A stretch of DNA of 64,000 nt from an uncultured Gemmatimonadaceae bacterium (GTDB lineage: Bacteria > Gemmatimonadota > Gemmatimonadetes > Gemmatimonadales > GWC2-71-9). Shown here one piece after another: positions 12,070-51,991 of this stretch. A program made the translations under genes and the position numbers. Location of the stretch: contig CAZPER010000002.1 in assembly GCA_964585655.1 (NCBI GenBank), forward strand, positions 18,727-82,726. Reading direction: 5' to 3'. How positions within the stretch are numbered: the first letter of the stretch is position 1; each line of letters starts with the position of its first letter. The notes under the pieces were generated by a model. That model saw only the letters and a program-made list of their open reading frames with translations. It was not told where the DNA came from and made no database searches.

Positions 12070-12086
12070 GGGATCGTCACTCCGCC

Positions 12087-12596: not shown

Positions 12597-12863
12597 TTAA
12601 CCGAGCGCCGCTTCCATCCGGCGCACCAGCGCGCGGGCCCGCCGCTGGAGCACCGGATGGCGCTCCCAATCCAGATAGTCCCGCAGCAGCCGCACCGACT
12701 CCACCGTGGGGGCGCCGCCCAGGGCGCCGAGCGCCGCGAACCGGCGCAGCGGGCGCGGGCTGAACAGATTGGCCCGGTGCCGAGCCAGGTGCTGCTCGGC
12801 GAGCCACCACCCCGCGGCCGTCCCGGCCAGCAGCCCGAAGAGCACGGCGCCCTTCCGCGCCAT
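12597..12863 (-). CDS. hypothetical small membrane-anchored protein
   Basis: 88 aa with one N-terminal hydrophobic helix. Its ATG shares one nt with the recR TGA (TGATG), which suggests translational coupling. I recognise no family. Confidence 0.4.
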   Translation of the reverse strand: MARKGAVLFGLLAGTAAGWWLAEQHLARHRANLFSPRPLRRFAALGALGGAPTVESVRLLRDYLDWERHPVLQRRARALVRRMEAALG

Positions 12864-13453: not shown

Positions 13454-13456
13454 GGG

Positions 13457-13765
13457 CTAGAGCGGGAGGTTGAAGGGGAGCGGGTTCGCCCGCCGCATCT
13501 CCTGCTGCAGCGCGTCGGCCGCGCGGCGCTGGGCCTCGGTCACCGCGCCCTGCACCAGGTCGGCCAGCAGCTCGGCGTCACGCCCGGCAAAGACCTCGGG
13601 GTCGATCCAGAGCGAGCGGATCGCGCCCTTCCCGTCCACCGTGACCCGCACCATGCCGCCGCCCGCCTGGGCGTCGTAGGTCGAGTCAGCCAGGCTGCGC
13701 TGGAGCTCCTGCAGGCGCCCCTGCATCTGCTGGCTGAGCTGCATCAACTGCTGCCAATCTGCCAT
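13457..13765 (-). CDS. ybaB: YbaB/EbfC family nucleoid-associated protein
   Basis: 102 aa with GGGMVRVTVDGKG motif, in the conserved dnaX-ybaB-recR order. Confidence 0.85.
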   Translation of the reverse strand: MADWQQLMQLSQQMQGRLQELQRSLADSTYDAQAGGGMVRVTVDGKGAIRSLWIDPEVFAGRDAELLADLVQGAVTEAQRRAADALQQEMRRANPLPFNLPL

Positions 13766-13837
13766 GTAGTATCGCTAAGTCCCTGCAAAGTCTGAGGAAA
13801 GTAGGGGCCCCGGGGGGCCAAGGCAAGCAAGCCAAAG

Positions 13838-15499
13838 CTAATCCAGCACCTCAAGATCGAGGCTGTCGGCCGCCGCCTCGAGGGCGGGGTCCCGCCCCTT
13901 GAGCACCTTGAGCCGCTCGGCCCGGGATTCCGCCTCGCTGAGACGCCGCGCCCGCGGAGTGGCCGGGGCACTTCCCGCGCCGGCGATGCCGAGCCGGACC
14001 GGGGCGCCCAGGACCCGGCCCAGGAGGGCCTGCACGGCGTCCCGCTGGCGTTCCAGCGCCTCCAGGTGCATCGGATTCCCATCGGGGACGCTGAGCCCCA
14101 CCAGCGGGGGATCGGCGGACACCGGGCGGGCGGCCGCCAGCGCCTCGCCCAGGAACCGCCCCTGAGCCCGCGCCACCACGACCACATCTGGCCAGGCGCG
14201 CTGGAGCCCCTCCAGCGTGAATTCGGCCCGCACCTCGGGCGCCGGCTCAGTCGCCCGGGGTTCCGCCGCGCTGGCGGGGGGCTCGGCGACCCGGCGGGCC
14301 GGCGGCTCCACGGCTCGGCGGCTCGGCGGCTCCGGGGGGCTGCCGCCGCCGGTGGCGGGGGCCGTCCCGCTCAGCAGCGCCTCCAGGTTGACGGTCCGGT
14401 CCAGCAGCACCCAGCGGAGGAGAAGGGTCTCGACGGAGAGGCGCGGGCTGGAGCTCTTCCGTATGCTGCCCTCGGATTCGCCGAGCAGCTTGAGCATGCG
14501 GAGCAGGTCCCCCTGGGACAGCTGTCCGCGATACCGCTCCAGGGTGTGCTGCATGGCCTCGGTCAGCCCCTCGGGCTGGGCTCCCACTTCGAGCATGAGC
14601 AGCGAGCGCAGCGCCTCTCCCGCCCCGCCCATGAACTCCACGAGGTCGGCCCCGGCCTCGTCCAGCCGGTCGAGGAGGGCAAAGACGCCCGCGGGCCGGC
14701 GCTCCGTGAGCAGGGCCAGGAGCTCGTCGTAGACCTCATCCGCCACCAGGCCGAGGATCTCCCGCACACGGAGCGCCGTGACCCCACCCTCGCCGAAGGA
14801 GAGACACTGGTCGAGCACGGAGAGGGCGTCCCGCATCCCGCCGTCGGCCTGGCGGGCGATGAGCGTCAGGGCATCGTCGTCGGCCTCGATCCGCTCGTCC
14901 GCCAGCACCCCGCGGAGCCGGTGCCGGATGGCGGTCGGACCGATGCGGCGGAAGTCGAACCGCTGCAGCCGCGAGAGCACCGGGGCGGCCATCTGGGCGA
15001 TCTTCTGCGGCTCGGTGGTGGCGAAGACGAACACCACGCCCGGGGGCGGCTCCTCGAGGATCTTGAGCAGGGCGTTCCATGCCTCCCGGGTGAGCATGTG
15101 GACCTCGTCCACGATGTACACCTTGTGGTGGCCTTCCTTGCTCGCGGCATACATGGCCCGTTCCCGCAGCTCCCGGGCGTCGTCCACGCCGCGGTTGCTG
15201 GCGGCGTCGATCTCGACCACGTCGAGGCTGGCCGACCCGTGCCAGATCCGCCGGCAGCTCTCGCACTCGCCGCAGGGCTCCCCGGCGGGCTCCACCTGGC
15301 CCTTCCGCTCGCAGTTGAGCGCCATGGCCAGGATGCGGGCCGCGGTGGTCTTGCCCACTCCCCGCGGGCCGGTGAGGAGGTAGCCGTGCCCCACCCGGCC
15401 CTTGAGCACGGCGCCGCGCAGTACCTGGGCCACGTGGTCCTGGACGAGCAGATCGCTGAAGCGGCGGGGACGGTACTTCCGGGCGAGCGCGAGGGCCAT
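13838..15499 (-). CDS. dnaX: DNA polymerase III subunit gamma/tau
   Basis: LLTGPRGVGKTT Walker A, CGECESC zinc module, YIVDEVHML Walker B, 553 aa. Confidence 0.9.
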   Translation of the reverse strand: MALALARKYRPRRFSDLLVQDHVAQVLRGAVLKGRVGHGYLLTGPRGVGKTTAARILAMALNCERKGQVEPAGEPCGECESCRRIWHGSASLDVVEIDAASNRGVDDARELRERAMYAASKEGHHKVYIVDEVHMLTREAWNALLKILEEPPPGVVFVFATTEPQKIAQMAAPVLSRLQRFDFRRIGPTAIRHRLRGVLADERIEADDDALTLIARQADGGMRDALSVLDQCLSFGEGGVTALRVREILGLVADEVYDELLALLTERRPAGVFALLDRLDEAGADLVEFMGGAGEALRSLLMLEVGAQPEGLTEAMQHTLERYRGQLSQGDLLRMLKLLGESEGSIRKSSSPRLSVETLLLRWVLLDRTVNLEALLSGTAPATGGGSPPEPPSRRAVEPPARRVAEPPASAAEPRATEPAPEVRAEFTLEGLQRAWPDVVVVARAQGRFLGEALAAARPVSADPPLVGLSVPDGNPMHLEALERQRDAVQALLGRVLGAPVRLGIAGAGSAPATPRARRLSEAESRAERLKVLKGRDPALEAAADSLDLEVLD

Positions 15500-15609: not shown

Positions 15610-15720
15610 TCCCGGCGCCCCAGGTCCGAAGGGCGCTGGCGCGCGAACCGCGTCAGGACCTCGCCGGTAGCAGCGCTAAGCGATGTCCAGTGTCGCTTCG
15701 GGGTGCCTGGGGCACTTCCT
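15610..15720 (+). ncRNA. ffs: signal recognition particle RNA (small/4.5S type)
   Basis: Long imperfect hairpin closed by GCCCCAGG (15617-15624) and CCTGGGGC (15706-15713). The apical region GUCAGGACC-UCGCC-GGUAGCAGCGCUAAGCGAUG parallels E. coli domain IV GUCAGGUCC-GGAA-GGAAGCAGCCAAGGCAGAUG. It lies next to dnaX, as in many bacteria. Ends are approximate. Confidence 0.6.
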
Positions 15721-22309: not shown

Positions 22310-23206
22310 TCAGCTACGGCCGAGCAGCACCGGCCGGGGGGGCGCCGCGCGCTGGCGGCCGAGCAGGTCCCAGGTCTCCACCACGACCGCTCCAAGGAGA
22401 AACACGAGGGCGGTGTAGTACAGCCACCCGACGAACAGGATGATCGCGCCGAGGTTGGCGTCGGCCGAAAAGCGATTGACCACCGCCAGGTGCACCAGGT
22501 ACCAGCCATAGAGCCGCTTGGCGATCTCGAACAGCACCGCGGCGAAGAGCGAGCCGGCCAGCGCCGCCAGGCGTGGCAGGCGGCGGGGCGAGGCGTGGCG
22601 GTAGACCATGTAGAAGAGCGACAGCGAAAAGGCGAACGCCAGCGCCTCCGTGATGAACTGCCCCACCGTCCCCACGAAGAACCCGAGGCCGGGGAGGGCC
22701 TGGATCAGCTGCTCGCCGCGGGCGTTGAGCACCTTGAGGCCCCCGGACAGCACGGCGTTCCCCACCACCAGCATCAGCGTGAGGATGACCATGCCCGCGT
22801 CCCGGGTCTTGCCCTTGAGGTAAAGGAACAGGAAGTGCTGGCCGGTCGGCCGGCGGGGCACGTCATAGACGAGGGTGAGCGAGGTGCGGATCGAGGCGAA
22901 CAGCCGGGTGGAGAACCAGAGAAAGAGCGGGAGGGCGTAGAGCGAGATCGCGGCCCGGGCCCGGGTGAAGCCGAGCAGGAACTGCTCCACCCGGGCGAAG
23001 GGGCCCTGCCCATCCGGGCCGGCCCAGGCCGGGACCACCCGCTGGAACAGCTGGTGCAGGTCCTGCGCGGTCGAGCCCGGCGACAGCTTGGCGATGTGGG
23101 TCAGCGCGACGAGCACGAGGAGGAGCAGCGGAATCGCCGCGAGCAGCGCGTCGAAGGTGAGCGCGCTGGCCAGGAAGGGGATGTTGTGCCGGTCGGCCTG
23201 ATTCAC
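22310..23206 (-). CDS. YihY/BrkB family membrane protein
   Basis: PFLASALTFDALLAAIPLL signature, 6 TM helices. The frame stays open upstream without ATG/GTG/TTG, so the N-terminus may be longer. Confidence 0.75.
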   Translation of the reverse strand: MNQADRHNIPFLASALTFDALLAAIPLLLLVLVALTHIAKLSPGSTAQDLHQLFQRVVPAWAGPDGQGPFARVEQFLLGFTRARAAISLYALPLFLWFSTRLFASIRTSLTLVYDVPRRPTGQHFLFLYLKGKTRDAGMVILTLMLVVGNAVLSGGLKVLNARGEQLIQALPGLGFFVGTVGQFITEALAFAFSLSLFYMVYRHASPRRLPRLAALAGSLFAAVLFEIAKRLYGWYLVHLAVVNRFSADANLGAIILFVGWLYYTALVFLLGAVVVETWDLLGRQRAAPPRPVLLGRS

Positions 23207-30499: not shown

Positions 30500-30616
30500 G
30501 CTGGCGGGCGTCGGGGGCTCAAGTGGTGGGGAGTCTAATCGTCCGGCGGGAGCGGCGGAACAGCGGCACGCGGCGTCCCGACCGGCGCCGGGGCCCGGAG
30601 CGCCCGCCGCGCCCGA

Positions 30617-32191
30617 TCAGCGGCGAAAGACCACCTCGCCGGCGACGACGGTGAGGCGGACCTGTGCCTCGCGCACCGCGAGCCAGTCCCCCCGCGCCGC
30701 GCCGGCATCCATGCTCCACACCACGAGGTCCGCGTCGTATCCCGGGGCCAGGCGCCCGCGGCGGCCGGCTACCCCTCCGGCGATGGCATTCCCCACCGTG
30801 TAGGCCCGGAGGGCAGTGTCGAAGTCGAGCCGCTCCCCCGCGTGCCAGCCGTCGCCGAAGCTCCCATCCGCCGCCACCCGGGCCATGGCCGCCGCGATCC
30901 CCTGCCGGGGATCAGGGGAGGCCACCGGGACGTCGCTGCCGAAGGCCAGCACCGCGCCGGATGCCTGCAGCGACCGGAACGGGTAGACCCGGCTGGTGCG
31001 GGCTCCCCACCGCTCTTCCGCAAGCGCCACGTCCGCCGGGAGATGTACCGGCTGCATCGACAGCACGATGCCATGCGCCGCGGCGCGGCCCAGGTCGGCG
31101 GGATGGACACACTGGAAATGTTCGATCCGGTGGGGGAGCGCCGCGGAGGGGAGGGGCGCCAGCAGGTCCAGCGCCTGGCGCACCGCGGCATCGCCGATGG
31201 CGTGAATGGTACTGGCGATGCCGGCGCTGGCCGCGGCCTCGACCACCCGTCGCGCGTTGGCGCTGTCCGCCAGCGGCAGTCCGTGGTCGGCGCCCCCCTC
31301 GTAGGGCTCGAGCATCCAGGCCGTCCGGCTCCCCAGACTCCCATCGAGGAAAAGCTTGATGCCCCCCAAGGCCAGCCAACTCGTCCCTTCGCCACTCCGC
31401 GCCTGATGCCGGAGCAGATCCGGCAGCTGCGCCACCGGCGGGTGGAAGAGCACCCGGAGCCGGAGTTCCCCCCGGCGCTCCAGGGTCTGGAAGGCCCGCA
31501 GGGCGTCAGGAGCCTCCATGGAGTGAATGCCGGTGAGGCCCAGGGCATGGGCATCAGTCTGAGCCTGGCGGAGGGCGGCCACGAGCCCCTCAGGGTCCGG
31601 TGCGGGGAGCACGGCGCGGACCAGATCCACGGCGCGCTCGAGCAGCAGCCCTGTGGGTTCCCCGGCCGCGTCGCGGACGATCCGCCCCCCAACGGGATCG
31701 GGGGTATCCCGGTCCACCCCGGCCCGGGCCAGCGCGGCGGTATTGACCCAGGCCGCGTGGATGTCCACCGACTCCAGGAAGACGGGGGCCTGGACCACCG
31801 TGTCGAGCGACCGGCGGTCCGGCGCCTCGTCCCACCGGTTCGCGTCCCAGCCATGGCCCCGGAGCCACCCCTGTTCGATCGTTCCCCCCGCCACGCGGCG
31901 CAGGGCCTCCGACCTCCGGGTGGCACCGGCGAGCTGGACCCGCCGCCGGCCCTGGGCCCACATCGCGAAGTGGGTGTGGCCGTCCACAATACCTGGGGTG
32001 ATCAGGGTGCGGGGAAGGTCATACCTGGGCACCCTCGAAGGGACCCGGCGCTCCAGCTCGGCCGCAGTCGCAACAGCCCGGATGACGCCCTCCTGCCACC
32101 AGATGGCGTCCCCCTCCACGCCCGGACTAAGGGAGAGAACCCGGCCGCCACGTAGCAGGCCGCTGGTTGCGGGGAGGGGGGGAGGATCCAC
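30617..32191 (-). CDS. amidohydrolase family protein (YtcJ-like metal-dependent hydrolase)
   Basis: ITPGIVDGHTHF metal-binding motif, HAIGD, FGSDVPV. ORF 30617..32326 trimmed to the GTG at 32191; start uncertain. Confidence 0.7.
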   Translation of the reverse strand: MDPPPLPATSGLLRGGRVLSLSPGVEGDAIWWQEGVIRAVATAAELERRVPSRVPRYDLPRTLITPGIVDGHTHFAMWAQGRRRVQLAGATRRSEALRRVAGGTIEQGWLRGHGWDANRWDEAPDRRSLDTVVQAPVFLESVDIHAAWVNTAALARAGVDRDTPDPVGGRIVRDAAGEPTGLLLERAVDLVRAVLPAPDPEGLVAALRQAQTDAHALGLTGIHSMEAPDALRAFQTLERRGELRLRVLFHPPVAQLPDLLRHQARSGEGTSWLALGGIKLFLDGSLGSRTAWMLEPYEGGADHGLPLADSANARRVVEAAASAGIASTIHAIGDAAVRQALDLLAPLPSAALPHRIEHFQCVHPADLGRAAAHGIVLSMQPVHLPADVALAEERWGARTSRVYPFRSLQASGAVLAFGSDVPVASPDPRQGIAAAMARVAADGSFGDGWHAGERLDFDTALRAYTVGNAIAGGVAGRRGRLAPGYDADLVVWSMDAGAARGDWLAVREAQVRLTVVAGEVVFRR

Positions 32192-32231
32192 GCCCCAACT
32201 TACTCCGGGTGCCAACCCACGACCATCGGGT

Positions 32232-32643
32232 CGTGGAAAACTGACAAAGGCATCGCAATGACAATTATCCACACCGGAACCGGGGGCCAGTAGGAGCCGC
32301 CACGACTCCGACACCGAGTCTCCCACGCCTGTGGAATCATGCCTTTATCAACATGTGGAATGGGGAAACCGCCTGAATACTGACTGCATGGCGCTGTGGC
32401 ACAAAGAACTAGACCTCCATGTGGTTTTCCACTTGAGGTCAAACGGCTAAACACAGTTCCCACAATGGGAAAAACGCCCCAGCGCATGTTGATAATAGGG
32501 GTGGCGACAGTGTCGCCAGTACCGAGTATTCTATGCACAGTTTGTGTATATGCGCCCGGGATGCTGACCGCCCGGCCTTACCCCGGATGGCATGGCGGAA
32601 AAGCAGAAACCCCGATCCCGGACCGCGGATCGAGGTTTCCACA
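32232..32643. promoter_or_regulatory. AT-rich intergenic region with a cluster of DnaA-box-like motifs
   Basis: Perfect TTATCCACA at 32265-32273 and TTATCAACA at 32345-32353. TCCACA/TGTGGA cores at 32232-40, 32330-37, 32354-61, 32421-32 (GTGGTTTTCCAC palindrome), 32456-64 and 32635-43. AT-rich stretch at 32526-32553. Confidence 0.45.
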
Positions 32644-32666
32644 TCAGCCGGACCCTGGGCGATCCG

Positions 32667-33518
32667 CTATTCCACGAACTTCATCCAGGCCGTGCCACCC
32701 TCCAGCATGGTTCCCACCATCCGGATGGGTGACGCGGTCAGGGCCTCCGCAAGCCTTCCCTTCCCCTGGAATCTCAAGGCCCCGGGCAGTGCTGAGATCC
32801 GCGTGGGATAGGCGCTGAACTCGACCTGCCAGACCCGATTCCCGTCCCCCCTGACCGCCCACTGGTGCCCGACCGGGCTCAGGGTCAGGGTCGAGTCCGG
32901 ACGGGGGTGCCCCGAGAAGAACAGGTCGGTCCGATCGAGGCGCAGCCGGTACTGCTCGTCGTCCGATTCGGGGACGGGCTCGCGGTTGATCTCGATCCGC
33001 TCCATCTGGATGAAGGCCAGCTCCATCTGCCGCTTGAGCCCGGAGTTGTTCGTGGCGAGGACGATCTGGGACAACCCGGGCCCGGATCCCAGCCGGTCCC
33101 CGGTGGCGGCCAGCCCCCACCAGAAGATCGCCAGCGGCTTCTTCCCCCCATCGGCCCGGTCGTAGTCCCGCTTCCCGATGGACACCCCCTTGGTAAACCA
33201 GAGGCAGACCTGGGAGGGAACCCACTCGGCGTACTCCGGCTCGTCTGTGATAACCCGCCGGAGCGCGGGGTGGAGGAGCGGGTAGTCCCGGGCGGCTACG
33301 GGGCGCTGGCCCCTGATGGCCAGGTCCGCGGCCGTGCGGGGCTCGATCAGGAGGTGAACGCACCAGCTCCCCTGCCCCTCCCCGATCTCCCAGGTGACCT
33401 TGGGCTCCGCCTGGGCTGCGGCATCCTGCGCCCGCAGCGACAGCGGGAGGAGCACCAGAACCGACAGGCTCCGGGCGATCGTGGCCATGGAGGTGCAGCG
33501 ACGACGGAACAGGGGCAT
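32667..33518 (-). CDS. hypothetical secreted protein
   Basis: ORF 32667..33980 trimmed to MPLFRRRCTSMATIARSLSVLVLLPLSLRAQD (signal peptide). I recognise no family. Last gene of the thiol-redox operon. Confidence 0.5.
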   Translation of the reverse strand: MPLFRRRCTSMATIARSLSVLVLLPLSLRAQDAAAQAEPKVTWEIGEGQGSWCVHLLIEPRTAADLAIRGQRPVAARDYPLLHPALRRVITDEPEYAEWVPSQVCLWFTKGVSIGKRDYDRADGGKKPLAIFWWGLAATGDRLGSGPGLSQIVLATNNSGLKRQMELAFIQMERIEINREPVPESDDEQYRLRLDRTDLFFSGHPRPDSTLTLSPVGHQWAVRGDGNRVWQVEFSAYPTRISALPGALRFQGKGRLAEALTASPIRMVGTMLEGGTAWMKFVE

Positions 33519-34642: not shown

Positions 34643-35343
34643 CAGGAGACCATTCCCATCTGGATGAAGTAGTACTCGGCCATGCCCAGCAGGACGACGC
34701 CGGCCCCCCGCTTGATCCACGCGGTCCAGCGCCCGCTCCGGGGGAGCACCGCCGCCATGCCGGAGGTGAGGCCCACCAGCGCCAGCAGCGCGGTCATCCC
34801 GAGTGAAAAGACGAACAGATACAGGAAACCCCACACGGCACTGCCGGTAGTGGTGACGAACGTGAGGGCTGCGGCGAAGGCCGGCGCCCCGCAGGGGGCC
34901 GCCACCAGGCCGGAGGTCGCCCCCATGGCGAAGACCCCGCCCAGCGAGCCACCCCCGAAGCGGTTGGCCCAGTTGAGGAACCGCTGGGGCACCGTCACGG
35001 GAAACACGTCCAGCAGCGCCAGCGCGAAGAGCAGCAACAGGTTGCCGATCGCGAAGTAGGACCACCGGTTGGAGCTGACCGCCCCGAAGAGCGACCCGGT
35101 CAGCCCCGCCAGCAGGCCCAGGGCAGCGTACACCAGCGCCACCCCGAGGATGTACACCGCAGTGTACGCCACGGTCCGTCCCCGGGAACGCTCCCGGGCG
35201 CCGGCGCCACCCAGCACACCGGCGACGATGGGAATCATGGGATAGACGCAGGGAGTCAGGCTGGTCACCAGGCCGGCGCCGAACATCAGCGCCAGTCCGG
35301 TGAGCGGGGCCTCACGCAGTACCTGATCGAGCGGCAGCGCCAT
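34642..35343 (-). CDS. ccdA: cytochrome c biogenesis/thiol-disulfide transporter CcdA (DsbD family)
   Basis: [12 protein letters not shown] and AAPCGAP Cys motifs, 6 TM helices. The start is 35343 or 35358; either overlaps the 3' end of ispG. Confidence 0.8.
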
Positions 35344-36547
35344 ACCGGTTTTCCACATACTCGTCGAGGAGGCGGAGGAAGTCGGCCACGATGGTGTCCC
35401 CCTTGAGGGTCACCATCAGGCGGCCGTCCACATAGACCGGCGCCTTGGGCTCCTCGAACGTACCCGGGAGGGAAATACCGATGTTGGCGTGCTTCGACTC
35501 TCCCGGCCCGTTCACCACGCACCCCATGACCGCCAGCTTAAGCTCCTCCACGCCGGGATAGCGCTCCCGCCACTCGGGCATCTGCTGCCGCAGGTAGCCC
35601 TGGATATCCTCGGCCATCTGCTGGAAGAAGGTGCTGGTGGTGCGGCCGCAGCCCGGGCAGGCGGTCACCTGGGGCGCGAAGCTCCGCAGCTCCAGCGACT
35701 GGAGGATCTGTTGCGCCACCAGCACCTCCTCGGTCCGGTCGCCCCCAGGCCGTGGGGTCAGGGAGACCCGGATGGTGTCCCCGATCCCCTCCTGCAGCAG
35801 GATGGCGAGCCCCGCGGCGCTGGCGACCACCCCCTTGGTGCCCATCCCCGCCTCGGTGAGGCCCAGATGGAGCGGGTAGTCGCAGCGTGCGGCCAGCAGC
35901 CGGTAGACCTCCACCAGGTCCTGCACCCCGGACACCTTTGCGCTCAGGATGATCCGGTCGTGCGCCATCCCAAGCGACTCGGCATGGGCCGCGGAGCGCA
36001 GCGCGCTCTCGAGCATGGCGTCCATCATCACGTCCCGGGCGTCCCGCGGCGCGGGGAGGAGGGCGTTGGCGTCCATCAGTTCGGTGAGCAGGATCTGGTC
36101 CAGGGAGCCCCAGTTCACTCCGATCCGCACCGGCTTGTCGTACCGGAGCGCCACCTCGATGATCGCCCGGAAATTCTCGTCCGCCCGCTTGCCGCCCACG
36201 TTTCCGGGGTTGATCCGGTACTTGGCCAGGGAGGCGGCGCACTCCGGATGACGGGTAAGAAGAATGTGGCCGTTGTAGTGGAAGTCCCCGATGATCGGGA
36301 CGGTGACCCCCTGCTCCGCCAGCCCGGCCACGATGGCCGGCACCGCCTGGGCCGCCGCTTCGTTGTTGACGGTCACCCGGACCAGCTGACTCCCCGCCTT
36401 GGCGAGCGCCACCACCTGCCGGATCGTCCCGGGGACATCGGCGGTGTCGGTGTTGGTCATGGACTGGACCACGATCGGGTGGTCGCTGCCTACGGGGACG
36501 TCACCGATCCAGGTGGTGACGGTCGGCCGGCGGGTGGCGTTTGACAT
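35312..36547 (-). CDS. ispG: 4-hydroxy-3-methylbut-2-en-1-yl diphosphate synthase
   Basis: ORF trimmed to [23 protein letters not shown], and CPGCGRT plus [10 protein letters not shown] Fe-S Cys motifs. Confidence 0.9.
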
Positions 36548-36597: not shown

Positions 36598-37473
36598 TCA
36601 GCTCCGGTCGAACTGCGCCTCGGTGATGGCGGCAAGGTCCGCCGGGGTGAGTGTCAGGTCCGCCGCGCCGGTGCTGTCGAGGATGTGCTCCACCTTGCGG
36701 GCGCTCGGAATGACGAAGACGGTCGGGCCCTGGGCCAGGACCCAGGCCAGGCAGAGCTGGTGGGCGCCCAGCCCCGTCCGCCGGGCGATCGCGGAGAGCA
36801 CAGGGTCCGTTGGCAGCTTCCTGGTGAGCCGTCCGCCGCCGGTCGGGCTGTAGGCCAGGAAGCCGATGCCCTGCTCCCCGCAATAGCGCACGACCCCGTC
36901 CTGGATCGCCTCGCGGAAGTAGGGGTTGAGCCGATTCTGCACCGTGGCGATCGGTGCGACCCCCTGCGCCTGCCGGATCTGGTCCACCGAAACATTGGAC
37001 AGCCCCAGCCACCGGATCTTCCCAGCGCGCCGCAGCTCGGCCAGCGCCCCGACGCTCTCGAGGAACGGCACTGCCGGGTCGGGCGCGTGCAGCTGGTACA
37101 GGGCGACCTGTTCCACGCCCAGCGCCCGGAGCGACGCGTCGCAGGCGGCCCGGAGGCTCTCGGGCCGGCCATCGCGGTCCCACCGCCCCCCGGTTCGCAC
37201 GATCCCGCCCTTGGTGGCCACCACCACCCGTTCCCGCGCCCCGCGCCATTCCCGGAGCGCCCGGGCGATCAGGCGCTCGTTGTGTCCGGTGTCGGCCGCG
37301 TCGAGGCAATAGGCGTTGGCGGTGTCGATGAGCGTCACGCCGGCGTCGAGGCCGGCGTGAATCACCCGAATGCCCTGTGCTTCCGGGGGCCGGTCCTGGA
37401 TGGAGAGGTGCATCCCGCCATAACCGACGACGGAGACCGCGGGGAGGCCGGGGCCGAGGGGGAGGACACGCAT
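36598..37473 (-). CDS. aldo/keto reductase
   Basis: GYGGM...[15 protein letters not shown], 291 aa. Confidence 0.85.
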
Positions 37474-46206: not shown

Positions 46207-48105
46207 CTAGGGGACGTCGCTCCCCTGACCTTCCGCCACACGTTTCAGAAACGTCACCAGCCCGTCCCGCACCGCGAGCGCATAGGCCAGCTGCCCCGCC
46301 GGCTGCCGGAGTGCGGCCTCCTGGTCCGGCAGCATCATGAAGAACCCCTCGCACAGCACGGCTGGCATCCAGGTAGGGCGGACCAGCGCCAGGTCGCCGC
46401 GCGCGGCTCCGAGGTCCCGCAGCCCGAGGCGCCGAACCAGTGCGGCCTGGATGTCCTGGGCCAGCGGCAGGCTCCGGGGGTGATAATAGAAGACACTCGA
46501 GCCGTTGTTGGTGAACGGGTTCACGCCATCCGGCAGCGCGTTGTTGTGAATCGATACCAGCAACTCGGCACCGAGCGAGTCCGCGAACCGGGTCCGGGCA
46601 TTGAGGTCCAGGCTTTCGGTGCCCCGCCGGGTCAGGATCGGCTGCGCGCCGGCGGCCTCCAGCAGCCGAACCAGCTCCAGGGACACGGCGAGGTTGGCGT
46701 CGGCCTCCTTGAGCCCGGTGGGACCGGTCGCGCCCAGCGGCGGGTGGCCCGGGTCCACCACGATTCTCCGGCCCCGAAGGGGCGCCGCGCCATCCACCAC
46801 CGGCGGCCGGCGCACTTCCAGCAGCAGGTCGTTCCCGCTCCAGCGAGTCCGATAACCCCACACCGGACCCGCGACATCCAGGGTGATGGTGACCTCGTCG
46901 CTCGCCGCCTGCAGCCAGCGGATCTGCCGCAGGTAGGGATCGTTGGCGCCGTACCGGATCCAGTTGATGTCGCCCACGGTGTTGTAGAGCCGCAGCGTGA
47001 GCCCGCCCTTCGCTTCCTCAACCCGGAACGGTATCCGCGCCGTGAGCGGCACCCGGACCACGACCCGGTCGGTGGCCGGAGTGGCGGTAAGGGAGAGCAC
47101 GGTGGCGCGGAGCGCGGGGCTCCCGGCGGGCAGCGGCACCAGATCCGCCGCCGGCACCCAGGCCTCCTGCTGGCGGGAGAGCCGGATGCGCGCGTCGTCT
47201 CCCAGCCGACCCGTGAGCTGGGCGCGGGTACCGGTCGGGAAGAACCAGTGGTAGGTCGCGCCGGGGCGCGCCCGTCCCACCGTCAGGCTGTCGGTGGTGC
47301 CGCTGCCCGCCGAATCGTCGTTCAGTTCGACCATCACCGGGAGGGTATCAAGCAGGGTGACCTCAAGCGGCCAGCGCAGCCGGACGGTATCGGCGCCACG
47401 GATCGCTTCGATGACAGCGCCCGTGGAGTCCCCCGGAAGGGCCTGGCCGCGGATGGCGCCAACGTAGCGTTCCGCACGCTGTGGCGCGAGGAGGTTTGCG
47501 GTGTCCCGGTCAAAGGCCCGGATCCCCCACGCAACCTCCCCGGGCCCCCGTTCGGCGGCGAGCGGGACCACGGCGCCACCGGGGAGCAGCAGGCGGACCT
47601 CGGCACCCTCGACGGCGCGGAGACTGACGGGGAGGTACTCGTCCCGGGGCCACCAGACCCGGCCCCCCGGACTGAGGCTGAGACTATCCACCCAGACCGG
47701 CGCGGCCGGGGGGCGGAAGCGGGGGACGGTCCGGAGGGAATACTGGTATCGCAGGGTGTCGGCGCCGGCGGTGGCCACCAGGGCGAAAGCCGGCGCGGAA
47801 TCCGGGGGGAGCGGCACCCAGGCCAGCCAGGCGCCATTGGGCCAGACCTTCACCGCCGCGTCATTGATGGTGAGCAGGGCCCGGCCGGTGCCGACGGTTC
47901 CGAACAGGAAGGTCGAGTCCCGGGCGTCCACGACGTCCCGGGGCCCGGGATAGACCACCCGGATCTCGAGCGGGCCATCCACCGTGGGAACCGGCGGGAG
48001 TCGGGAACCGTCTGGCGGGAGGGGACCGGGGGCGGATCCCGGCCGGGCGCAGCCAGCCAGGAGGAGGAGCGCCAGGGCGAGACCGCCGCGCACCGCAAGG
48101 GGCAT
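46207..48105 (-). CDS. N-acetylmuramoyl-L-alanine amidase (Amidase_3/AmiC-type) lipoprotein with long N-terminal domain
   Basis: ORF trimmed to MPLAVRGGLALALLLLAGC (lipobox). C-terminal VVDPGHPPLGATG...SIHNNA...EGFFM amidase_3 motifs. Confidence 0.8.
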   Translation of the reverse strand: MPLAVRGGLALALLLLAGCARPGSAPGPLPPDGSRLPPVPTVDGPLEIRVVYPGPRDVVDARDSTFLFGTVGTGRALLTINDAAVKVWPNGAWLAWVPLPPDSAPAFALVATAGADTLRYQYSLRTVPRFRPPAAPVWVDSLSLSPGGRVWWPRDEYLPVSLRAVEGAEVRLLLPGGAVVPLAAERGPGEVAWGIRAFDRDTANLLAPQRAERYVGAIRGQALPGDSTGAVIEAIRGADTVRLRWPLEVTLLDTLPVMVELNDDSAGSGTTDSLTVGRARPGATYHWFFPTGTRAQLTGRLGDDARIRLSRQQEAWVPAADLVPLPAGSPALRATVLSLTATPATDRVVVRVPLTARIPFRVEEAKGGLTLRLYNTVGDINWIRYGANDPYLRQIRWLQAASDEVTITLDVAGPVWGYRTRWSGNDLLLEVRRPPVVDGAAPLRGRRIVVDPGHPPLGATGPTGLKEADANLAVSLELVRLLEAAGAQPILTRRGTESLDLNARTRFADSLGAELLVSIHNNALPDGVNPFTNNGSSVFYYHPRSLPLAQDIQAALVRRLGLRDLGAARGDLALVRPTWMPAVLCEGFFMMLPDQEAALRQPAGQLAYALAVRDGLVTFLKRVAEGQGSDVP

Positions 48106-48150
48106 GGGCTGCAAGGTACACGGCCACCGCGACTTACGGCAGATCATCCG

Positions 48151-48179
48151 TTGACGCTCCACGCGCGCAATCCTAGATT
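48151..48179 (+). promoter_or_regulatory. candidate sigma70-type promoter for the FHA-kinase-phosphatase operon
   Basis: TTGACG (48151-56), 17-nt spacer, TAGATT (48174-79), ~115 nt upstream of the FHA gene ATG. Confidence 0.4.
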
Positions 48180-48292
48180 GCTGGGATAGCCCTTCCGTAC
48201 ATCGTCCCGAGATCCGAGGATCGCCCCATCAACATGCACCCGGCGTGCGTCGGTTGGCTGGTCAGCTTCGCCGCCTTCGAGGTGAGGGGCTG

Positions 48293-49210
48293 ATGTCACC
48301 ACCGGCGCCGGAGGTCTCGCGCGGCCCGGCGGGTGCGGGCGCCAGCGTGAAGTGTCCGAGCTGCAACGCCGGCGTCGCCGCCGACCTGCCCTTCTGCGGC
48401 CAGTGCGGCACCCGGCTGACCCAGGCGCGGGCGGCGCACGCCTGTACACGGTGCGGCCGGCTGAACGAACAGGGCTCCAAGTTCTGCCCAGCCTGCGGGG
48501 CCGCCTTCGGCAACACCGGGCCGCAGCCCCAGGTCCCCGCCGCCCCGCCCAAGAGCGGCGGGCCCGTCACGGCGCACCTTGCCCTGCTGGACCGGGGCGG
48601 CCAGGTGGCGCAGCGTTTCCCGTTGCTCAATGCCGTGACGACGCTGGGCCGCCAGGGGGCCGACGTCAATTTCCCCGATGATGATTATCTCTCGCCGCTG
48701 CACGCCCAGTTCCTCCTGATCGACGGCATCCTGACCCTCCGGGACCTCGGCAGCAAGAACGGCACCTGGCTCTACCTCGATGAACCCCACAAACTCACCG
48801 ACGGAGATCTCATCCTCCTCGGCAGCCAGATCCTCCGCTACCGCCGGCTCGGCTATCCCGGGCCCCGTCCCCCGGAGCAGGACCAGACCCGGCGGCTCGG
48901 GAGCCTGACGCCGGCGGCGGATATCGCCAACCTGGCCCAGGTCCGGGGCGACGGCAGCGCCCGGGATATCCTGACCCTTTCCCCGGGTCGGTCGGTGCGG
49001 GTGGGCCGGGAGCAGGGTGACTGGCAGTTTCCCTACGACTCCTCGATGAGCGCCCTGCACGCCCTCATCCGGAGCGAGGACGCCGACTTCGTCCTGGTGG
49101 ACGCCGGGAGCCGGAACGGCGTGGCCGTCGCGGTGAAGGGGGAGCGGCGGGTGCCGCCCGGTGCGCGGCTCCTCGCCGGCGACCAGATGCTCCGCGCGGA
49201 GATCGGATGA
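48293..49210 (+). CDS. zinc-ribbon plus double FHA-domain protein
   Basis: ATG at 48293. CPSC...CGQCG and CTRCG...CPACG ribbons. Two FHA cores (TLGRQGADV...SPLHAQ...LRDLGSKNGT and RVGREQ...SALHA...VDAGSRNG). Confidence 0.8.
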   Translation: MSPPAPEVSRGPAGAGASVKCPSCNAGVAADLPFCGQCGTRLTQARAAHACTRCGRLNEQGSKFCPACGAAFGNTGPQPQVPAAPPKSGGPVTAHLALLDRGGQVAQRFPLLNAVTTLGRQGADVNFPDDDYLSPLHAQFLLIDGILTLRDLGSKNGTWLYLDEPHKLTDGDLILLGSQILRYRRLGYPGPRPPEQDQTRRLGSLTPAADIANLAQVRGDGSARDILTLSPGRSVRVGREQGDWQFPYDSSMSALHALIRSEDADFVLVDAGSRNGVAVAVKGERRVPPGARLLAGDQMLRAEIG

Positions 49211-50949
49211 AGGTCTGCACCACCTGCGGCGCCGAGTACGGCGACGAGAAGCTGTTCTGCGAACGGGATGGCACCTCGCTCCGGAAGTCGGGAGGGGCGG
49301 GCGATCTCGTGGGCCAGGTGATTGCCGAGCGGTACCACATCACGAAGAAGCTGGGCGAGGGCGGGATGGGCCAGGTCTACCTGGCCGAGCATGTGAAGAT
49401 GGGCCGCCGCTGCGCCATCAAGATCATGACCCCGGGGACGATGAGCGACCCGGACGCGATCAGCCGCTTCAACCGCGAAGCCGCCAACGCCAGCCGCATC
49501 AGCCACCCCAATGTCTGCGCCATCTACGATTTCGGGGAGACGCCCGACGGGCTGATCTACCTCGCGATGGAGTACATCGAGGGGAAGAGCCTGAGCGGGC
49601 TGATGGAGGAGGCGGGGACGCTGCCGCTGGCGCGCGCCGCGCTGATCGTCACCCAGACCGCCGAGGCGCTCCAGGTCGCCCACGACCTCGGCATCGTCCA
49701 CCGGGACCTCAAGCCCGACAACATCATGGTCATCACCGCCCGCGGGAAGGACACCGTAAAGGTGGTGGACTTCGGCATCGCGAAGGCGATCGGCGGGGAC
49801 GACGGCAGCGCCCAGAAGGTCACCAAGACCGGTTTCGTGGTGGGGACGCCGGAGTACATGAGTCCGGAGCAGCTCTCCGGCGACCCGGTGGACGGCCGCA
49901 GCGACAACTATTCCCTGGGCCTGGTCTTCTACAAGATGCTGACGGGGGCGAGTCCCTTCCCCGCCGACAGCCAGCAGGAGACGATGATCAAGCGGCTGAC
50001 GGACGATCCGCTGCCGCTGGCGGCGGCCCGGCCCGACGTCCGCTTCCCGCCCGAGCTGCAACGGGTCATGGACCGGGCCCTGGCGCGGAGCCCGGCGGAG
50101 CGCTATCGCACCGCGGGCGACTTCGCGCGAGAAGTGAAGGGCCTCTCCAGCGTCCTGACGGGACAGGTGGATGCCGAGGCCGGCACCCAGGTGGTGCGGC
50201 CGGAGGACCTCAAGGCGGCGGTGCCGGCCACCCGGGTGGACCCCGCGGCGGGCCGGGCGGTCAAGCCGGCGCCCAAGACCCAGCCGGCGTCAGCGGCCCC
50301 GGGCAGCGCTCCCGCCGGTTCGCGCCTGCCGGTGGTGCCCATCGCGATCGCCGTAGCGGTGCTGGCCGTGGGCGGTGGGGGCTACGCGTTCAAGGACGCC
50401 ATCTTTGGTGCGGCGCCCGCGGACTCCGGCGCGGTGCAGGATACCAGCCGGCTGGCGGGTGGGACCCCGATCGTCCCGGAAACCACCGCGGTCGATCCCG
50501 GCACCACACCGGGGCCCGTGACGCCGCTGAGCGGGCGGGACACCGCCACCAAGCCGCCGCAGCAGGGCGGCGGCCGACCGACGGGGGGGCAGACCAACCC
50601 CGGTGGCACGCCGACGAATCCGGGCGGCACCCCGACGAACCCGGGCGGCACCAGCACCAATCCTCCGGTGACGCCGGACAATGGGGCGCTGGAGCGCCAG
50701 GTCCTGGCGTACTATGACGACCTCGGATTCGAGGACGATCCCAGCAAGCGCCTGGAGGCGCGGCGGCTGGGCCAGCAGGTGTTCACCATCACCGCGATGC
50801 CCCGCCCGGTCCGGGCCAAGGCGGCGTGGCTGGTCATGCAGGGGTATCTCAAAGAGGGCAACGCCGACAAGGCACGGGAGTGGCTCGATCACGCGATCGA
50901 ACTCGACCCGTCTCAACAGTCCTGGAAGACCGTCCGGGCGCAGATGTGA
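49207..50949 (+). CDS. Ser/Thr protein kinase with N-terminal zinc ribbon, TM helix and extracytoplasmic Pro/Thr-rich plus helical-repeat domain
   Basis: CTTCG...FCERDG; HRDLKPDNIM, DFGIAK, GTPEYMSPEQ; TM VVPIAIAVAVLAVGGGGY. ATGA overlap with the FHA gene. Confidence 0.85.
   Translation: MKVCTTCGAEYGDEKLFCERDGTSLRKSGGAGDLVGQVIAERYHITKKLGEGGMGQVYLAEHVKMGRRCAIKIMTPGTMSDPDAISRFNREAANASRISHPNVCAIYDFGETPDGLIYLAMEYIEGKSLSGLMEEAGTLPLARAALIVTQTAEALQVAHDLGIVHRDLKPDNIMVITARGKDTVKVVDFGIAKAIGGDDGSAQKVTKTGFVVGTPEYMSPEQLSGDPVDGRSDNYSLGLVFYKMLTGASPFPADSQQETMIKRLTDDPLPLAAARPDVRFPPELQRVMDRALARSPAERYRTAGDFAREVKGLSSVLTGQVDAEAGTQVVRPEDLKAAVPATRVDPAAGRAVKPAPKTQPASAAPGSAPAGSRLPVVPIAIAVAVLAVGGGGYAFKDAIFGAAPADSGAVQDTSRLAGGTPIVPETTAVDPGTTPGPVTPLSGRDTATKPPQQGGGRPTGGQTNPGGTPTNPGGTPTNPGGTSTNPPVTPDNGALERQVLAYYDDLGFEDDPSKRLEARRLGQQVFTITAMPRPVRAKAAWLVMQGYLKEGNADKAREWLDHAIELDPSQQSWKTVRAQM
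50596..50658 (+). repeat. 3 x 21-nt in-frame tandem repeat (NPGGTPT) inside the kinase gene
   Basis: aaccccggtggcacgccgacg / aatccgggcggcaccccgacg / aacccgggcggcaccagcacc. Confidence 0.8.
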
Positions 50950-50955
50950 GGCAAC

Positions 50956-51978
50956 TTGGCTAACGTGCACATCTCCGTCTTCGGCAAGACCGACGTGGGC
51001 AAGACCCGCGATCACAACGAGGACACCTTCCTCGTCGCGGACCTGACCCGGAAGGCCGCGAGCCTGCAACCCGACGTGCGCGAGCACGATGTCGGACCGC
51101 GCGGCACCCTCTTCATGGTCGCGGACGGCATGGGCGGGGCGGCCGCCGGCGAGGTCGCCAGCCGCATGGCCGCCGACCTGGTCTTCAGCCACATGTCGAC
51201 CGTCTGGACCGAGGACAGCGACGTCAGCGCCCAGCGCTTTGCCTACCGGATGAAGGAGGCGGTGGAACTGGCCAACAACCGGATCCACCTCCACGCCAAG
51301 GACCACCCCGAAGTCCGGGGCATGGGCACGACCGCCACGGTGGCCGGCGTCTTCGGGAGCGATCTGTACCTGGCTCAGGTCGGTGACAGCCGGGCCTACC
51401 TGATCCGGAAGGGCGCCATCACCCAGATCACCAAGGACCAGTCGCTCATGCAGCGGCTGGTGGAGGCCGGGGAGATCACCGAGGAGGAGGCCGAGCAGAG
51501 CGAGCGGCGCAACATCATCCTCCAGGCCCTCGGCCCCGACCCCCGGGTCAAGGTGGACCTCACCTACCAGCCCCTCCGCCGAGGCGACCTGCTGCTGCTG
51601 TGCTCCGATGGACTGTCGGGACAGGTCAAGAAGGAAGAGATGGCCCAGCTGGTCGCCGAAGGGGGCGAACTGGTGGACATCTGCTCGCGGCTCATCACCC
51701 TGGCCAACGAGCGGGGGGGCCCCGACAACATCACGGCGATCGCCGCTCGCTTCGGCGGCGACGGCCTGCCCGAACCGGACGGCAGCGCCGAGGTGGGCCA
51801 CCAGGTCTATCCGCTCACCGAGGCGGAGGCTACCACCGAGCCGGTCCCCGTGTACACCGGAAGCCCCGCGCCCGTGCCCATCAGCGAGCAGCCGGCCCAG
51901 CCCCGGCGCACGGTGCTCGGGCTGCTCGCGCTGCTCGCGCTGGCCGCCGCGCTCTACCTCGCGTTCGGTGGCCGGTGA
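50956..51978 (+). CDS. PP2C-family Ser/Thr phosphatase with C-terminal TM anchor
   Basis: GKTDVGKTRDHNED, MVADGMGG, DNITAI. TTG start at 50956 (GTG alternative at 50965). Confidence 0.85.
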   Translation: MANVHISVFGKTDVGKTRDHNEDTFLVADLTRKAASLQPDVREHDVGPRGTLFMVADGMGGAAAGEVASRMAADLVFSHMSTVWTEDSDVSAQRFAYRMKEAVELANNRIHLHAKDHPEVRGMGTTATVAGVFGSDLYLAQVGDSRAYLIRKGAITQITKDQSLMQRLVEAGEITEEEAEQSERRNIILQALGPDPRVKVDLTYQPLRRGDLLLLCSDGLSGQVKKEEMAQLVAEGGELVDICSRLITLANERGGPDNITAIAARFGGDGLPEPDGSAEVGHQVYPLTEAEATTEPVPVYTGSPAPVPISEQPAQPRRTVLGLLALLALAAALYLAFGGR

Positions 51979-51991
51979 CGGGCCGCCGCCC

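Follow-up and report, generated by a model that had tools for sequence, protein, structure and literature searches.

Chromosomal loci that control the initiator DnaA from outside the replication origin, such as datA, DARS1/2 and the Bacillus and Streptomyces clusters, are known from very few model bacteria and are not recognizable by sequence elsewhere. datA is a DnaA-box cluster away from oriC that needs a precisely placed accessory protein; it uses IHF, promotes ATP hydrolysis and acts on DnaA, not on replication directly. DARS2 lies mid-replichore. The DBCs of B. subtilis and D78 of S. coelicolor bind DnaA and modulate initiation, often from promoter regions; these intergenic non-oriC clusters were reportedly described by Okumura et al. 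in 2012 and Smulczyk-Krawczyszyn et al. in 2006, respectively. To our knowledge, the datA, DARS and DBC loci are each conserved only over narrow taxonomic ranges, a point that counts against the analogy drawn below. In the DARS loci the spacing between boxes is conserved and the boxes include an oppositely oriented pair, and DARS2, of about 455 bp, also has IHF and Fis sites (PMC6868365).

Here we describe an element from the Gemmatimonadales, found in a 64-kb stretch of DNA that we analyzed as a whole (hereafter the window). Like E. coli DARS1 and DARS2, it is a non-origin chromosomal cluster of DnaA boxes with an oppositely oriented pair. However, DARS boxes I and II have a 5-bp spacer between them, whereas the inverted pairs of the Gemmatimonadales element are separated by 0 and 3 bp; the element also has many more boxes, its accessory-type site is a CGACA-S-TGTCG palindrome, and it is conserved across the order. 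It shares with datA the layout of a box cluster that would depend on a precisely placed accessory protein, but we did not find an IHF-type consensus at the element. The B. subtilis and S. coelicolor clusters are origin-proximal and narrowly conserved, whereas this element is apparently mid-replichore, phased at 157 bp and order-wide. A blastn search of 5,426 E. coli genomes for datA/DARS homology gave no match, so membership of the datA/DARS class would be by functional analogy only. We also saw no similarity of the element to plasmids, and the literature that we searched does not mention it.

A preliminary description of this DNA had suggested several identities for the locus. The one that survived is a datA/DARS-like locus or protein-binding array. 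The boxes, their order and their spacing are conserved across the order, which supports the box cluster far more strongly than the sequence alone could. Our best explanation is a conserved DNA-level protein-binding array that may serve, away from the origin, as an assembly site for DnaA like datA, DARS and the DBCs, a reading that we favor tentatively and at slightly less than an even chance.

Composition and parts of the intergenic gap

The gap runs from 32192 to 32666, its lower bound set by the re-examined start of the downstream amidohydrolase gene. The AT-rich island initially placed at 32200–32667 was borne out: no other 400 bp of the 64 kb has a GC content as low as that of 32210–32609 (54.7%; mean 70.7%, sd 3.1). 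It had also been called the sole long non-coding stretch, but crude gene calls leave three other gaps of at least 360 bp (22396–22964, 47983–48346 and 57599–58217); it is the sole one with low GC. The perfect DnaA box at 32265–73 and the one-mismatch box at 32345–53 were both confirmed, and we identified a further one-mismatch box, TTATCAACA at 32487–95 on the minus strand, that had been overlooked. The coordinates and motifs reported for at least six further TCCACA/TGTGGA cores hold as well, except that 32232–40 reads CGTGGA and 32635–43 is the arm of a terminator. An inverted repeat, GGCGAC-AGT-GTCGCC at 32503–17, was likewise correctly located and is a nearly invariant palindrome, and the run at 32526–53 proposed as an unwinding element is AT-richer, but only modestly so (37% GC over 30 bp).

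Three of the four DnaA boxes with at most one mismatch in the whole 64 kb fall inside the gap. Compared with 1000 dinucleotide-preserving shuffles of the gap itself, we observed three such boxes against 0.09 expected, and eight boxes with at most two mismatches against about 1.2 expected (1.23). None of the 1000 shuffles attained either count, indicating that the enrichment is not due to low G+C. The bare TCCACA core was not enriched across the window (13 copies, four of them in the gap, against 21.7 expected). The parts of the element and its surroundings, in window coordinates, are:

32667–33518, minus strand: upstream gene whose 283-aa product carries a signal peptide and matches no Pfam family, the final gene of an ispG-dsbD-trx-prx cluster
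32598–32642, minus strand: intrinsic terminator of the upstream operon, with a 16-bp stem, an 8-nt loop and then UUUU (−46.4 kcal/mol for a 96-nt stretch including the hairpin, z = −2.3); it bounds the element without being part of the conserved array
About 32260–32555, minus strand: the whole conserved non-coding element, reading 5′ to 3′ in the same direction as the flanking genes (blastn, MAFFT, nhmmer)
32531–32551: distal AT-rich module of two inverted box-like 9-mers 3 bp apart; 28–38 bp long, with a mean of 37% GC in 70 loci of mean GC 68%
32543–51, minus strand: box-like ATATACACA of the distal module, whose paired arms have identities of 0.85 and 0.88 and change independently, with no compensatory change
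32531–39, plus strand: box-like CTATGCACA of the distal module, inverted relative to ATATACACA
32503–32517: palindrome GGCGACACTGTCGCC with core CGACA-S-TGTCG, nearly invariant (identity 0.91)
32487–32495, minus strand: DnaA box TTATCAACA with one mismatch (identity 0.92 in the close group, variants TT[A/T]TC[A/C]ACA)
32447–32474: conserved block TTTTTCCCATTGTGGGAACTGTG(T/G)TTAG (identity 0.76–0.80, close group only), which also contains the inverted repeat TTCCCA-TTG-TGGGAA
32456–64, plus strand: box-like GTTCCCACA within this block
32447–55, plus strand: box-like CTAAACACA within this block
32425–32433, plus strand: DnaA-box-like TTTTCCACT, AAGTGGAAAA on the minus strand (identity 0.93); its AAGTGGA is retained in the distant group too
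32345–32362: abutting inverted box pair, TTATCAACA (32345–53, plus strand) and CATTCCACA (32354–62, minus strand)
32330–38, minus strand: box-like GATTCCACA in 32319–32338 (close group only; pair identities 0.77 and 0.86)
32319–27, plus strand: box-like TCTCCCACG in 32319–32338 (close group only)
32265–32273, plus strand: perfect DnaA box TTATCCACA (close-group form TT[A/T/G]TC[C/A]ACA, identity 0.89)
32232–32240, minus strand: weak box TTTTCCACG in a local inverted repeat close to where the gene begins; poorly conserved (identity 0.64) and therefore probably outside the core
30617–32191, minus strand: downstream gene for a YtcJ-like amidohydrolase (PF07969), starting with GTG at 32191, with GGAG at 32204–07, about 12 nt upstream of the GTG

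Conservation of the array and its possible binders

By blastn, MAFFT and nhmmer, a core of 200–330 bp, corresponding to about 32260–32555, has one common location in 79 of the 81 genome loci from Gemmatimonadales. The element is also at this locus in 65 metagenome contigs, and the comparative set comprised about 145 independent sequences. Long contigs with the element include JADJNL010000001.1 (2.70 Mb, element near 0.905 Mb), CAVWRM010000001.1 (3.73 Mb, element near 2.81 Mb), JADJOM010000003.1 and CAVVWJ010000002.1. We retrieved the metagenome loci by the palindrome together with the inverted pair, and any lineages that had lost the element would therefore be absent from that part of the set. 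The best 120 amidohydrolase homologues are all MAG proteins.

Conservation is concentrated in the CGACA-S-TGTCG palindrome and in 9-mers of either orientation that resemble DnaA boxes. Identity is 0.85 in motif columns compared to 0.49 in spacers, and 65 of the 73 columns conserved at 90% or more fall in motifs, which make up 42% of columns. Spacer sequence is free but spacer length is held, with almost no indels. The DnaA-type feature with the highest conservation is the abutting inverted pair, whose family consensus, TTTTCCACA directly followed by TGTGGAAAA, has a frequency of at least 0.9 in 78 loci. Boxes with at most one mismatch are 122-fold denser in the elements than in 877 kb of flanks, with a perfect or one-mismatch TTATCCACA at two to five conserved positions in each close-group locus. 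The leading enriched 7-mers are TTCCACA, TGTGGAA and CACATGT plus the palindrome core, and CACATGTG is enriched 966-fold in elements over flanks.

We consider it extremely improbable that the gap is simply an unannotated gene, whether for a small protein or for a structured RNA such as an sRNA, a leader or a riboswitch. The folding z-scores (minus strand, −1.9; plus strand, −2.9) would suit an RNA, but the motifs are palindromes at the DNA level, and for that reason one strand folds as well as the other. The RNA option of the preliminary description also failed on Rfam matches and covariation: no Rfam family was found at the gathering threshold in the window or up to E = 10 in the region, ARAGORN detected no tRNA or tmRNA, the RNAalifold covariation term was +0.9 with a compensatory change in only 2 of 34 pairs, and the center of the palindrome flips between C and G. 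Inverted arms of the element change independently of each other. For a protein, the window does contain a 112-aa open reading frame at 32200–32538 on the minus strand, but even the most open frame spans the element in just 10 of 63 loci, there is no period-3 signal, and the length of the spacer ranges over 156–159 bp.

We infer three things: binding of the boxes by DnaA, binding of the palindrome by a second protein, and a regulatory function of the array. The array might instead bind some other regulator or regulators, with TCCACA/TGTGGA half-sites that merely resemble DnaA boxes and no involvement of DnaA. The distant group (about 52 loci) has few canonical DnaA boxes: its only good box is the inverted pair, and the other islands, TGTTCATAA, TCTGCATAA and ATATTCAC, each have two mismatches. 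In addition, top conservation falls in the palindromes TTCCACATGTGGAA, CGACA-S-TGTCG and TTCCCA-TTG-TGGGAA. However, the two to five conserved boxes per close-group locus and their 122-fold density argue for DnaA, and variation within the boxes obeys TT[A/T]TNCACA, tracking the degeneracy of the DnaA box (A/T/G at position 3, C/A at position 6). The half-sites also occur both singly and in pairs, in varied spacing and orientation, a variety that one dimeric regulator would not accept; their presence at 0 bp, at 3 bp and in isolation fits the monomeric domain IV of DnaA. By eye, the geometries of Rex, CRP/FNR and parS sites misfit the element, and no second conserved TTCCAC..GTGGAA palindrome occurs elsewhere. 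We consequently regard an array for other regulators as distinctly unlikely.

The same inspection by eye rejected sigma-54, NBS and dif geometries. The window has a second TTCCAC..GTGGAA palindrome at 37828, which we considered and rejected; it is missing from the only relative whose sequence could be read there and is probably due to chance.

The CGACA-S-TGTCG palindrome lies 156–158 bp from the inverted pair in 62 of 64 loci, its center is C or G in either orientation, and its core is virtually confined to the element across about 1.1 Mb of loci. We presume that it is the site for a dimeric DNA-binding protein. Its GCGACACTGTCGC matches what we take to be the E. coli matS sequence, GTGACRNYGTCAC, at 11 of 13 positions, a lead only, though one that would also suit a regulator other than DnaA. 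The element differs from matS/MatP in that its palindrome is single-copy per genome, and we know of no MatP outside Gammaproteobacteria. Likewise as a lead only, the outer halves of TTTCCAC-AT-GTGGAAA resemble what we assume to be the half-sites of parS and of Noc-binding sites, but its center spacing differs from that of parS by 2 bp. The spacer between the pair and the palindrome showed no 10.5-bp A/T periodicity.

Neighboring genes and a candidate role in DnaA control

The element is fixed at the head of an amidohydrolase/pyruvate-kinase/pgi/fba gene block, and the gene that follows, which has the same orientation, always lies directly downstream of it. An intrinsic terminator insulates it from the upstream operon, and in the distant group the inverted pair is 50–90 bp from the start codon. 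It is known that DnaA can act as a transcription factor, and the B. subtilis box clusters lie in promoter regions. This arrangement could suggest a complex operator or enhancer that puts the amidohydrolase, and perhaps pyk-pgi-fba, under the control of DnaA and of the palindrome-binding protein, with no role in controlling DnaA itself. Several observations speak against this. We found no conserved −35/−10 or sigma-54 promoter in the element, the sole hit being on the plus strand and non-conserved, and pyruvate kinase has its own conserved −10-like ATTAGACTCC next to its start. The element is intact despite deletion of the amidohydrolase in L098, L103, L123, L131, L135, L141 and L093, of which L103 keeps a DAIWWQ remnant of the deleted gene; in these loci the parts of the element not used for retrieval are intact too, so that conservation of the array is independent of the amidohydrolase. 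Finally, eight to ten phased sites over 300 bp far exceed the need of known DnaA-regulated promoters. An operator or enhancer of this kind is thus unlikely in our estimation, but since a gene always follows the element directly, a purely transcriptional role is possible, as is a secondary effect on transcription of the downstream gene.

For a DnaA assembly site, the motifs suggest the following mechanism. About eight to ten DnaA-box-like 9-mers (TT[A/T]TNCACA), in both orientations and at fixed distances, would recruit DnaA via domain IV, with binding nucleating at the strongest sites, namely the perfect box at 32265–73 and the inverted pair at 32345–62. A dimeric protein would occupy CGACA-S-TGTCG, 157 bp or about 15 helical turns from the inverted pair; at that distance the palindrome and the pair would be on the same face of the helix and could join one phased nucleoprotein particle. 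Placed mid-replichore between a terminator and the next gene, the locus would most likely act, like datA/DARS or the B. subtilis clusters, as a chromosomal DnaA-control site, either by titrating DnaA or by altering its nucleotide state or availability. A more specific version, which we consider doubtful, is that the element is an independently evolved analogue of datA/DARS, a DnaA-remodelling or -titrating locus of the whole order whose head-to-head pair is phased to the site of a new partner.

If true, the location of the element would hard-wire the status of the replication initiator to central carbon metabolism. It would also provide a candidate DnaA-control locus in Gemmatimonadota, a phylum without replication genetics. 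Its conserved boxes, free spacers and 157-bp rule offer precise mutational targets, and a probe for the partner that would bind the palindrome.

Position relative to the replication origin

The preliminary description had also named the locus a candidate oriC. Several of its features do resemble an enterobacterial oriC: many boxes in both orientations, conserved protein sites separated by spacers of free sequence and fixed length, an AT-richer module at one edge, and co-oriented flanking genes, as E. coli oriC likewise has. The element could in principle be the chromosomal oriC of these Gemmatimonadales, lying apart from dnaA as in E. coli. However, its flanks show no strand, skew or KOPS switch like that of a bacterial oriC, we saw neither an extended DUE nor DnaA-trios, and synteny places it mid-replichore.

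Both flanking genes had been noted to lie on the minus strand with no switch in orientation, and this extends much further: in the window, co-orientation across the element spans about 30 kb, and every one of the 79 loci has co-oriented genes on its two sides. With an origin here, nrdJ, ispG and other sequence totalling at least 15 kb would face replication head-on. To the right of the element, the side on which an origin would call for the plus strand, the KOPS-like GGGNAGGG is distributed 0:11 (plus:minus); within plus-strand genes the ratio is 1:9. Across 78 loci the two flanks share its polarity (94:28 in one and 98:38 in the other; Fisher p = 0.39). We used this polarity and gene-strand-resolved skew in place of simple GC skew, which is noisy in the window with a local minimum near 36 kb. 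In each half of the window, genes on the minus strand are richer in G than those on the plus strand, indicating the same leading strand throughout. GC skew did differ slightly between paired flanks in the direction expected of an origin (43 of 55 loci), but the difference is gene-specific and non-independent, and we held this comparison uninformative because it is confounded by shared genes.

As had been stated, there is no dnaA nearby: the window and all of the loci lack a dnaA signature, and a Pfam scan of the roughly 48 window genes found no dnaA, dnaN, gidA or parAB. We saw no extended DUE, the AT module being 28–38 bp at about 37% GC, and inspection against the BUS rules revealed no run of three or more 3′-GAT-5′-type DnaA-trios. 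In PMC11237797, the predicted origins of closed Gemmatimonadota genomes adjoin dnaA, including the Ori-Finder origin of G. aurantiaca T-27, which agrees with GC skew (Tables S1/S2). We used T-27, which may itself be without the element, as a positional reference. Both flanks of the element are collinear with T-27, at 1.10–1.12 Mb and 1.316–1.330 Mb, and these regions belong to one replichore, flagged 'leading', at relative positions of 0.24–0.28 from the origin (PMC11237797). The examined part of Table S2 gave no match to the amidohydrolase, Prx or DsbD neighborhood in T-27.

Gene co-orientation, GGGNAGGG polarity, strand-split skew, T-27 synteny and the lack of a dnaA signature all speak against an origin here, and we conclude that the element is very unlikely to be oriC. 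Its location in the middle of a chromosome arm instead suggests that it is probably an initiator-control locus. For MAGs this cautions against calling an origin solely because DnaA boxes form a dense, conserved cluster with an AT-rich edge.

We also considered a dif site or terminus and rejected it; the one sequence that looks like a XerC arm is GGGCGCATAT of the window itself, it is not conserved, and there is no family-wide convergence of polarity. As a separate observation, GGGNAGGG polarity may be a useful replichore marker for Gemmatimonadota.

An AT-rich gap with a cluster of DnaA boxes

The lowest-GC 400-bp stretch of the whole 64 kb (54.7%, compared with 70.7 ± 3.1%) lies in a non-coding gap of this Gemmatimonadales genome, whose G+C content is ~70%. 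This confirmed that the gap is poorer in G+C than its surroundings, but it is not the sole long non-coding stretch, as the preliminary description had it: other gaps of at least 360 bp are present in the window at normal GC. The features of the region are as follows.

32192-32666: non-coding gap between two minus-strand genes
32667 (stop), minus strand: upstream gene, encoding a 283-aa signal-peptide protein without a Pfam family
32598-32642, minus strand: strong intrinsic terminator, a 16-bp stem followed by UUUU
32191 (GTG start), minus strand: YtcJ-like amidohydrolase gene, with GGAG ahead of the start
30531-30540, minus strand: -10-like motif ATTAGACTCC, just 5' of the pyruvate kinase start, also found in the related loci L098, L103, L123, L131 and L141

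The gene for the 283-aa protein is the final member of an AKR-ispG-dsbD-trx-prx block, and the terminator closes this ispG-dsbD-trx-prx-secreted protein operon. The amidohydrolase gene is followed by genes for pyruvate kinase and an MBL hydrolase, then pgi and fba. The aldo/keto reductase (36598-37473) and IspG (35312-36547) are encoded by separate genes in the window, as in five sister MAGs; in one conspecific MAG (L082, 4623-6785) they are called as one 720-aa fusion, probably a frameshift or assembly artefact.

All of the motifs previously listed in the gap were present when we re-checked them. Three of the four window matches to TTATCCACA with at most one mismatch fall in the gap; one of these three, overlooked before, lies at 32487-95 on the minus strand. 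As a null model we used 1000 dinucleotide-preserving shuffles of the gap sequence itself. The gap contains 3 boxes with at most one mismatch (0.09 expected) and 8 with at most two (1.23 expected), and neither count was reached in any of the 1000 shuffles, indicating that low G+C is not the cause of the cluster. Three of the proposed components fared less well. The site at 32635-43 is part of the terminator stem rather than of the array, the site at 32232-40 is present but weak and poorly conserved, and the 'AT-rich run' does mark a low-GC module, yet one that still has 37% GC over 30 bp.

Conservation and architecture of the element

We retrieved 80 species-level Gemmatimonadales loci via the amidohydrolase and searched them for homologues of the gap using blastn, MAFFT and an iterated nhmmer profile. 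A homologous non-coding element (core ~32260-32555 in the window) was found in 79 of the 81 loci, immediately 5' of the amidohydrolase gene and in the same orientation; one of the two loci without it has no upstream DNA at all. Scanning metagenomes with a pattern made up of a palindrome and an inverted pair of boxes, described below, yielded 65 further copies, all in identical context, although lineages that have lost the element would escape such sampling. The element spans ~290-330 bp in a 'close' group of ~24 loci and has a core of ~200 bp in a 'distant' group of ~52.

Only short islands are conserved. Across an alignment of 18 sequences, identity was 0.85 in motif columns versus 0.49 in spacers, and 65 of the 73 columns conserved at 90% or more lie inside motifs, which make up 42% of columns. 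These islands are 9-mers that resemble DnaA boxes and occur in both orientations, with variation that obeys TT[A/T]TNCACA; also conserved is a palindrome, CGACA-S-TGTCG, with a central C:G base pair in either orientation. Of the DnaA-type features, the most conserved is a pair of abutting inverted boxes, TTTTCCACA and TGTGGAAAA (window 32345-62). Compared with 877 kb of flanks, the elements have a 122-fold higher density of boxes at up to one mismatch. The palindrome core is all but unique to the element across ~1.1 Mb of loci, and among 7-mers enrichment is greatest for the cores of the box and of the palindrome. In all but 2 of 64 loci the palindrome and the inverted pair are 156-158 bp apart (157 bp, or 15 helical turns, in 44). 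About 100 bp of the intervening sequence is unconserved, yet the spacing is nearly indel-free. This comparative support for the element is unusually clean.

The suggestion of an unannotated RNA gene did not hold up. No known RNA family or tRNA matched at the element, nor was there covariation: the RNAalifold term was +0.9, and just 2 of 34 pairs were compensatory. The motifs are palindromic DNA, which is why one strand folds as well as the other. Protein coding was ruled out by the best frame being open in at most 10 of 63 loci, the absence of a period-3 signal in the element, and spacer lengths that vary by 1-3 bp. We consider it extremely unlikely that the element is an RNA or an open reading frame.

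Replication and transcription around the element

In enterobacterial oriCs, sites are conserved while spacer sequence is free and spacer length fixed. The element shares this pattern, which made the earlier suggestion of a candidate oriC one to take seriously, but several lines of evidence make that very unlikely. Genes are co-directional on both sides in every locus compared (over ~30 kb of the window, 17.5-48 kb), in agreement with the preliminary description, and from an origin here replication would meet at least 15 kb of genes head-on, nrdJ and ispG among them. As had been noted for dnaA, origin markers are absent: dnaA, dnaN, gidA and parAB were not found among ~48 window genes scanned against Pfam, and no reading frame of the window or of the loci contained a DnaA signature motif. 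Coding strands of minus-strand genes are more G-rich than those of plus-strand genes in both window halves (full skew 0.025 versus 0.008 on the left, 0.021 versus -0.039 on the right), so the leading strand is apparently the same on either side of the element.

The KOPS-like word GGGNAGGG, the KOPS word of E. coli, is strongly strand-polar and does not switch polarity at the element either. The window has 6 copies on the plus strand and 20 on the minus. To the right of the element, where the word should favor the plus strand if this were an origin, the ratio is 0:11. Within plus-strand genes the ratio is 1:9 (9 of 10 on the non-coding strand), indicating that the polarity is no coding-strand effect. 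Across 78 oriented loci the flanks are equal in polarity (94:28 and 98:38, Fisher p = 0.39; sum 192:66). The exception is 22.7-32.2 kb, left of the element, where small numbers run 5:1 toward plus, against the trend elsewhere in the window and in the corresponding flank of related genomes (98:38). The word may serve as an FtsK-orienting or replichore-polarity word in Gemmatimonadales.

Ori-Finder origins are available for five closed Gemmatimonadota genomes (Tomasch et al., 2024; PMC11237797); in at least three of the five the coordinate adjoins dnaA, and GC skew is reported to agree. The DNA on either side of the element is collinear with a single replichore of the closed relative Gemmatimonas aurantiaca T-27 (Table S2, PMC11237797): window 63.5->38.5 kb with a block at 1.10-1.12 Mb (GGT, MurQ, AnmK, GH3, amidase, RNR), and 30.5->10.7 kb with one at 1.316-1.330 Mb (pyk...dnaX-recR...pgsA). 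In T-27 the genes of both blocks lie on the plus strand and carry the flag 'leading', and their relative position is 0.24-0.28, which argues against an origin at the element. T-27 has ~196 kb of extra DNA between the blocks, carries ispG (GAU_0148) elsewhere (0.18 Mb, opposite strand), and seems to have no room for the element beside pyk. Together, gene orientation, markers, skew, GGGNAGGG and T-27 indicate that replication most likely crosses the window from right to left.

The position of the element 5' of a gene could reflect a purely transcriptional role, which we consider unlikely. At least eight metagenome loci (L093, L098, L103, L123, L131, L135, L141 and L181) lack the amidohydrolase and have pyruvate kinase as the next gene after the element. 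In these loci the element is intact; the AT-rich module and the ATATTCAC island, both of which lay outside the metagenome search pattern, are retained as well. L103 (~3700-3830) retains a leftover coding DAIWWQ of the amidohydrolase, indicating that the gene was deleted and the element kept. The -10-like ATTAGACTCC is conserved near the pyruvate kinase start with or without the amidohydrolase, ~8 nt ahead of the ATG in several loci, which suggests a near-leaderless pyk promoter. Promoter search and inspection found no conserved sigma-70 or sigma-54 promoter within the element. It thus appears to be maintained independently of the gene that follows.

A candidate assembly site acting on DnaA

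Our preferred reading, at somewhat short of even confidence, is that the element is a non-origin nucleoprotein assembly site acting on DnaA. We infer both DnaA as the binder and this function. Binding of DnaA domain IV to the phased boxes would start from the perfect box and the inverted pair, and a dimeric partner protein would occupy the palindrome on the same helical face, 15 turns away. The complex could then titrate DnaA or change its nucleotide state, and possibly gate the downstream gene too. An array for a regulator other than DnaA is quite unlikely. The palindrome GCGACACTGTCGC (32503-32517) agrees at 11 of 13 positions with the E. coli matS consensus GTGACRNYGTCAC; being single-copy here, it is a lead only to the kind of protein that might bind.

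The earlier comparison with datA and DARS stands insofar as this is a conserved box cluster away from the origin, but we found no similarity to E. coli datA, DARS or oriC, or to plasmids. Like DARS loci (PMC6868365), the element has an oppositely oriented box pair, conserved inter-box spacing and a putative accessory-protein site, the palindrome, and its size resembles that of DARS2 (~455 bp). Unlike them, it has pair spacers of 0 bp and 3 bp rather than 5 bp, a far larger number of boxes, a putative accessory site of another kind, no homology, and order-wide conservation. Its proposed action resembles that of datA, DARS and the box clusters of Bacillus and Streptomyces, all of which act on DnaA, and it would belong with such extra-origin clusters. 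In our literature search, Gemmatimonadota origins and DnaA-box clusters were undescribed beyond the Ori-Finder coordinates (PMC11237797).

Elsewhere in the window, a bacterial small SRP RNA (15617-15716, plus strand; 46 bits versus a gathering score of 40) adjoins dnaX-ybaB-recR (12863-15499, minus strand), and an MglA-like small GTPase is paired with a Roadblock/MglB protein at 11392-12524 (minus strand). An FHA - Ser/Thr kinase - PP2C - FHA/trypsin signalling cluster (48347-53446, plus strand) is the only sizeable plus-strand block within 17.5-58 kb.
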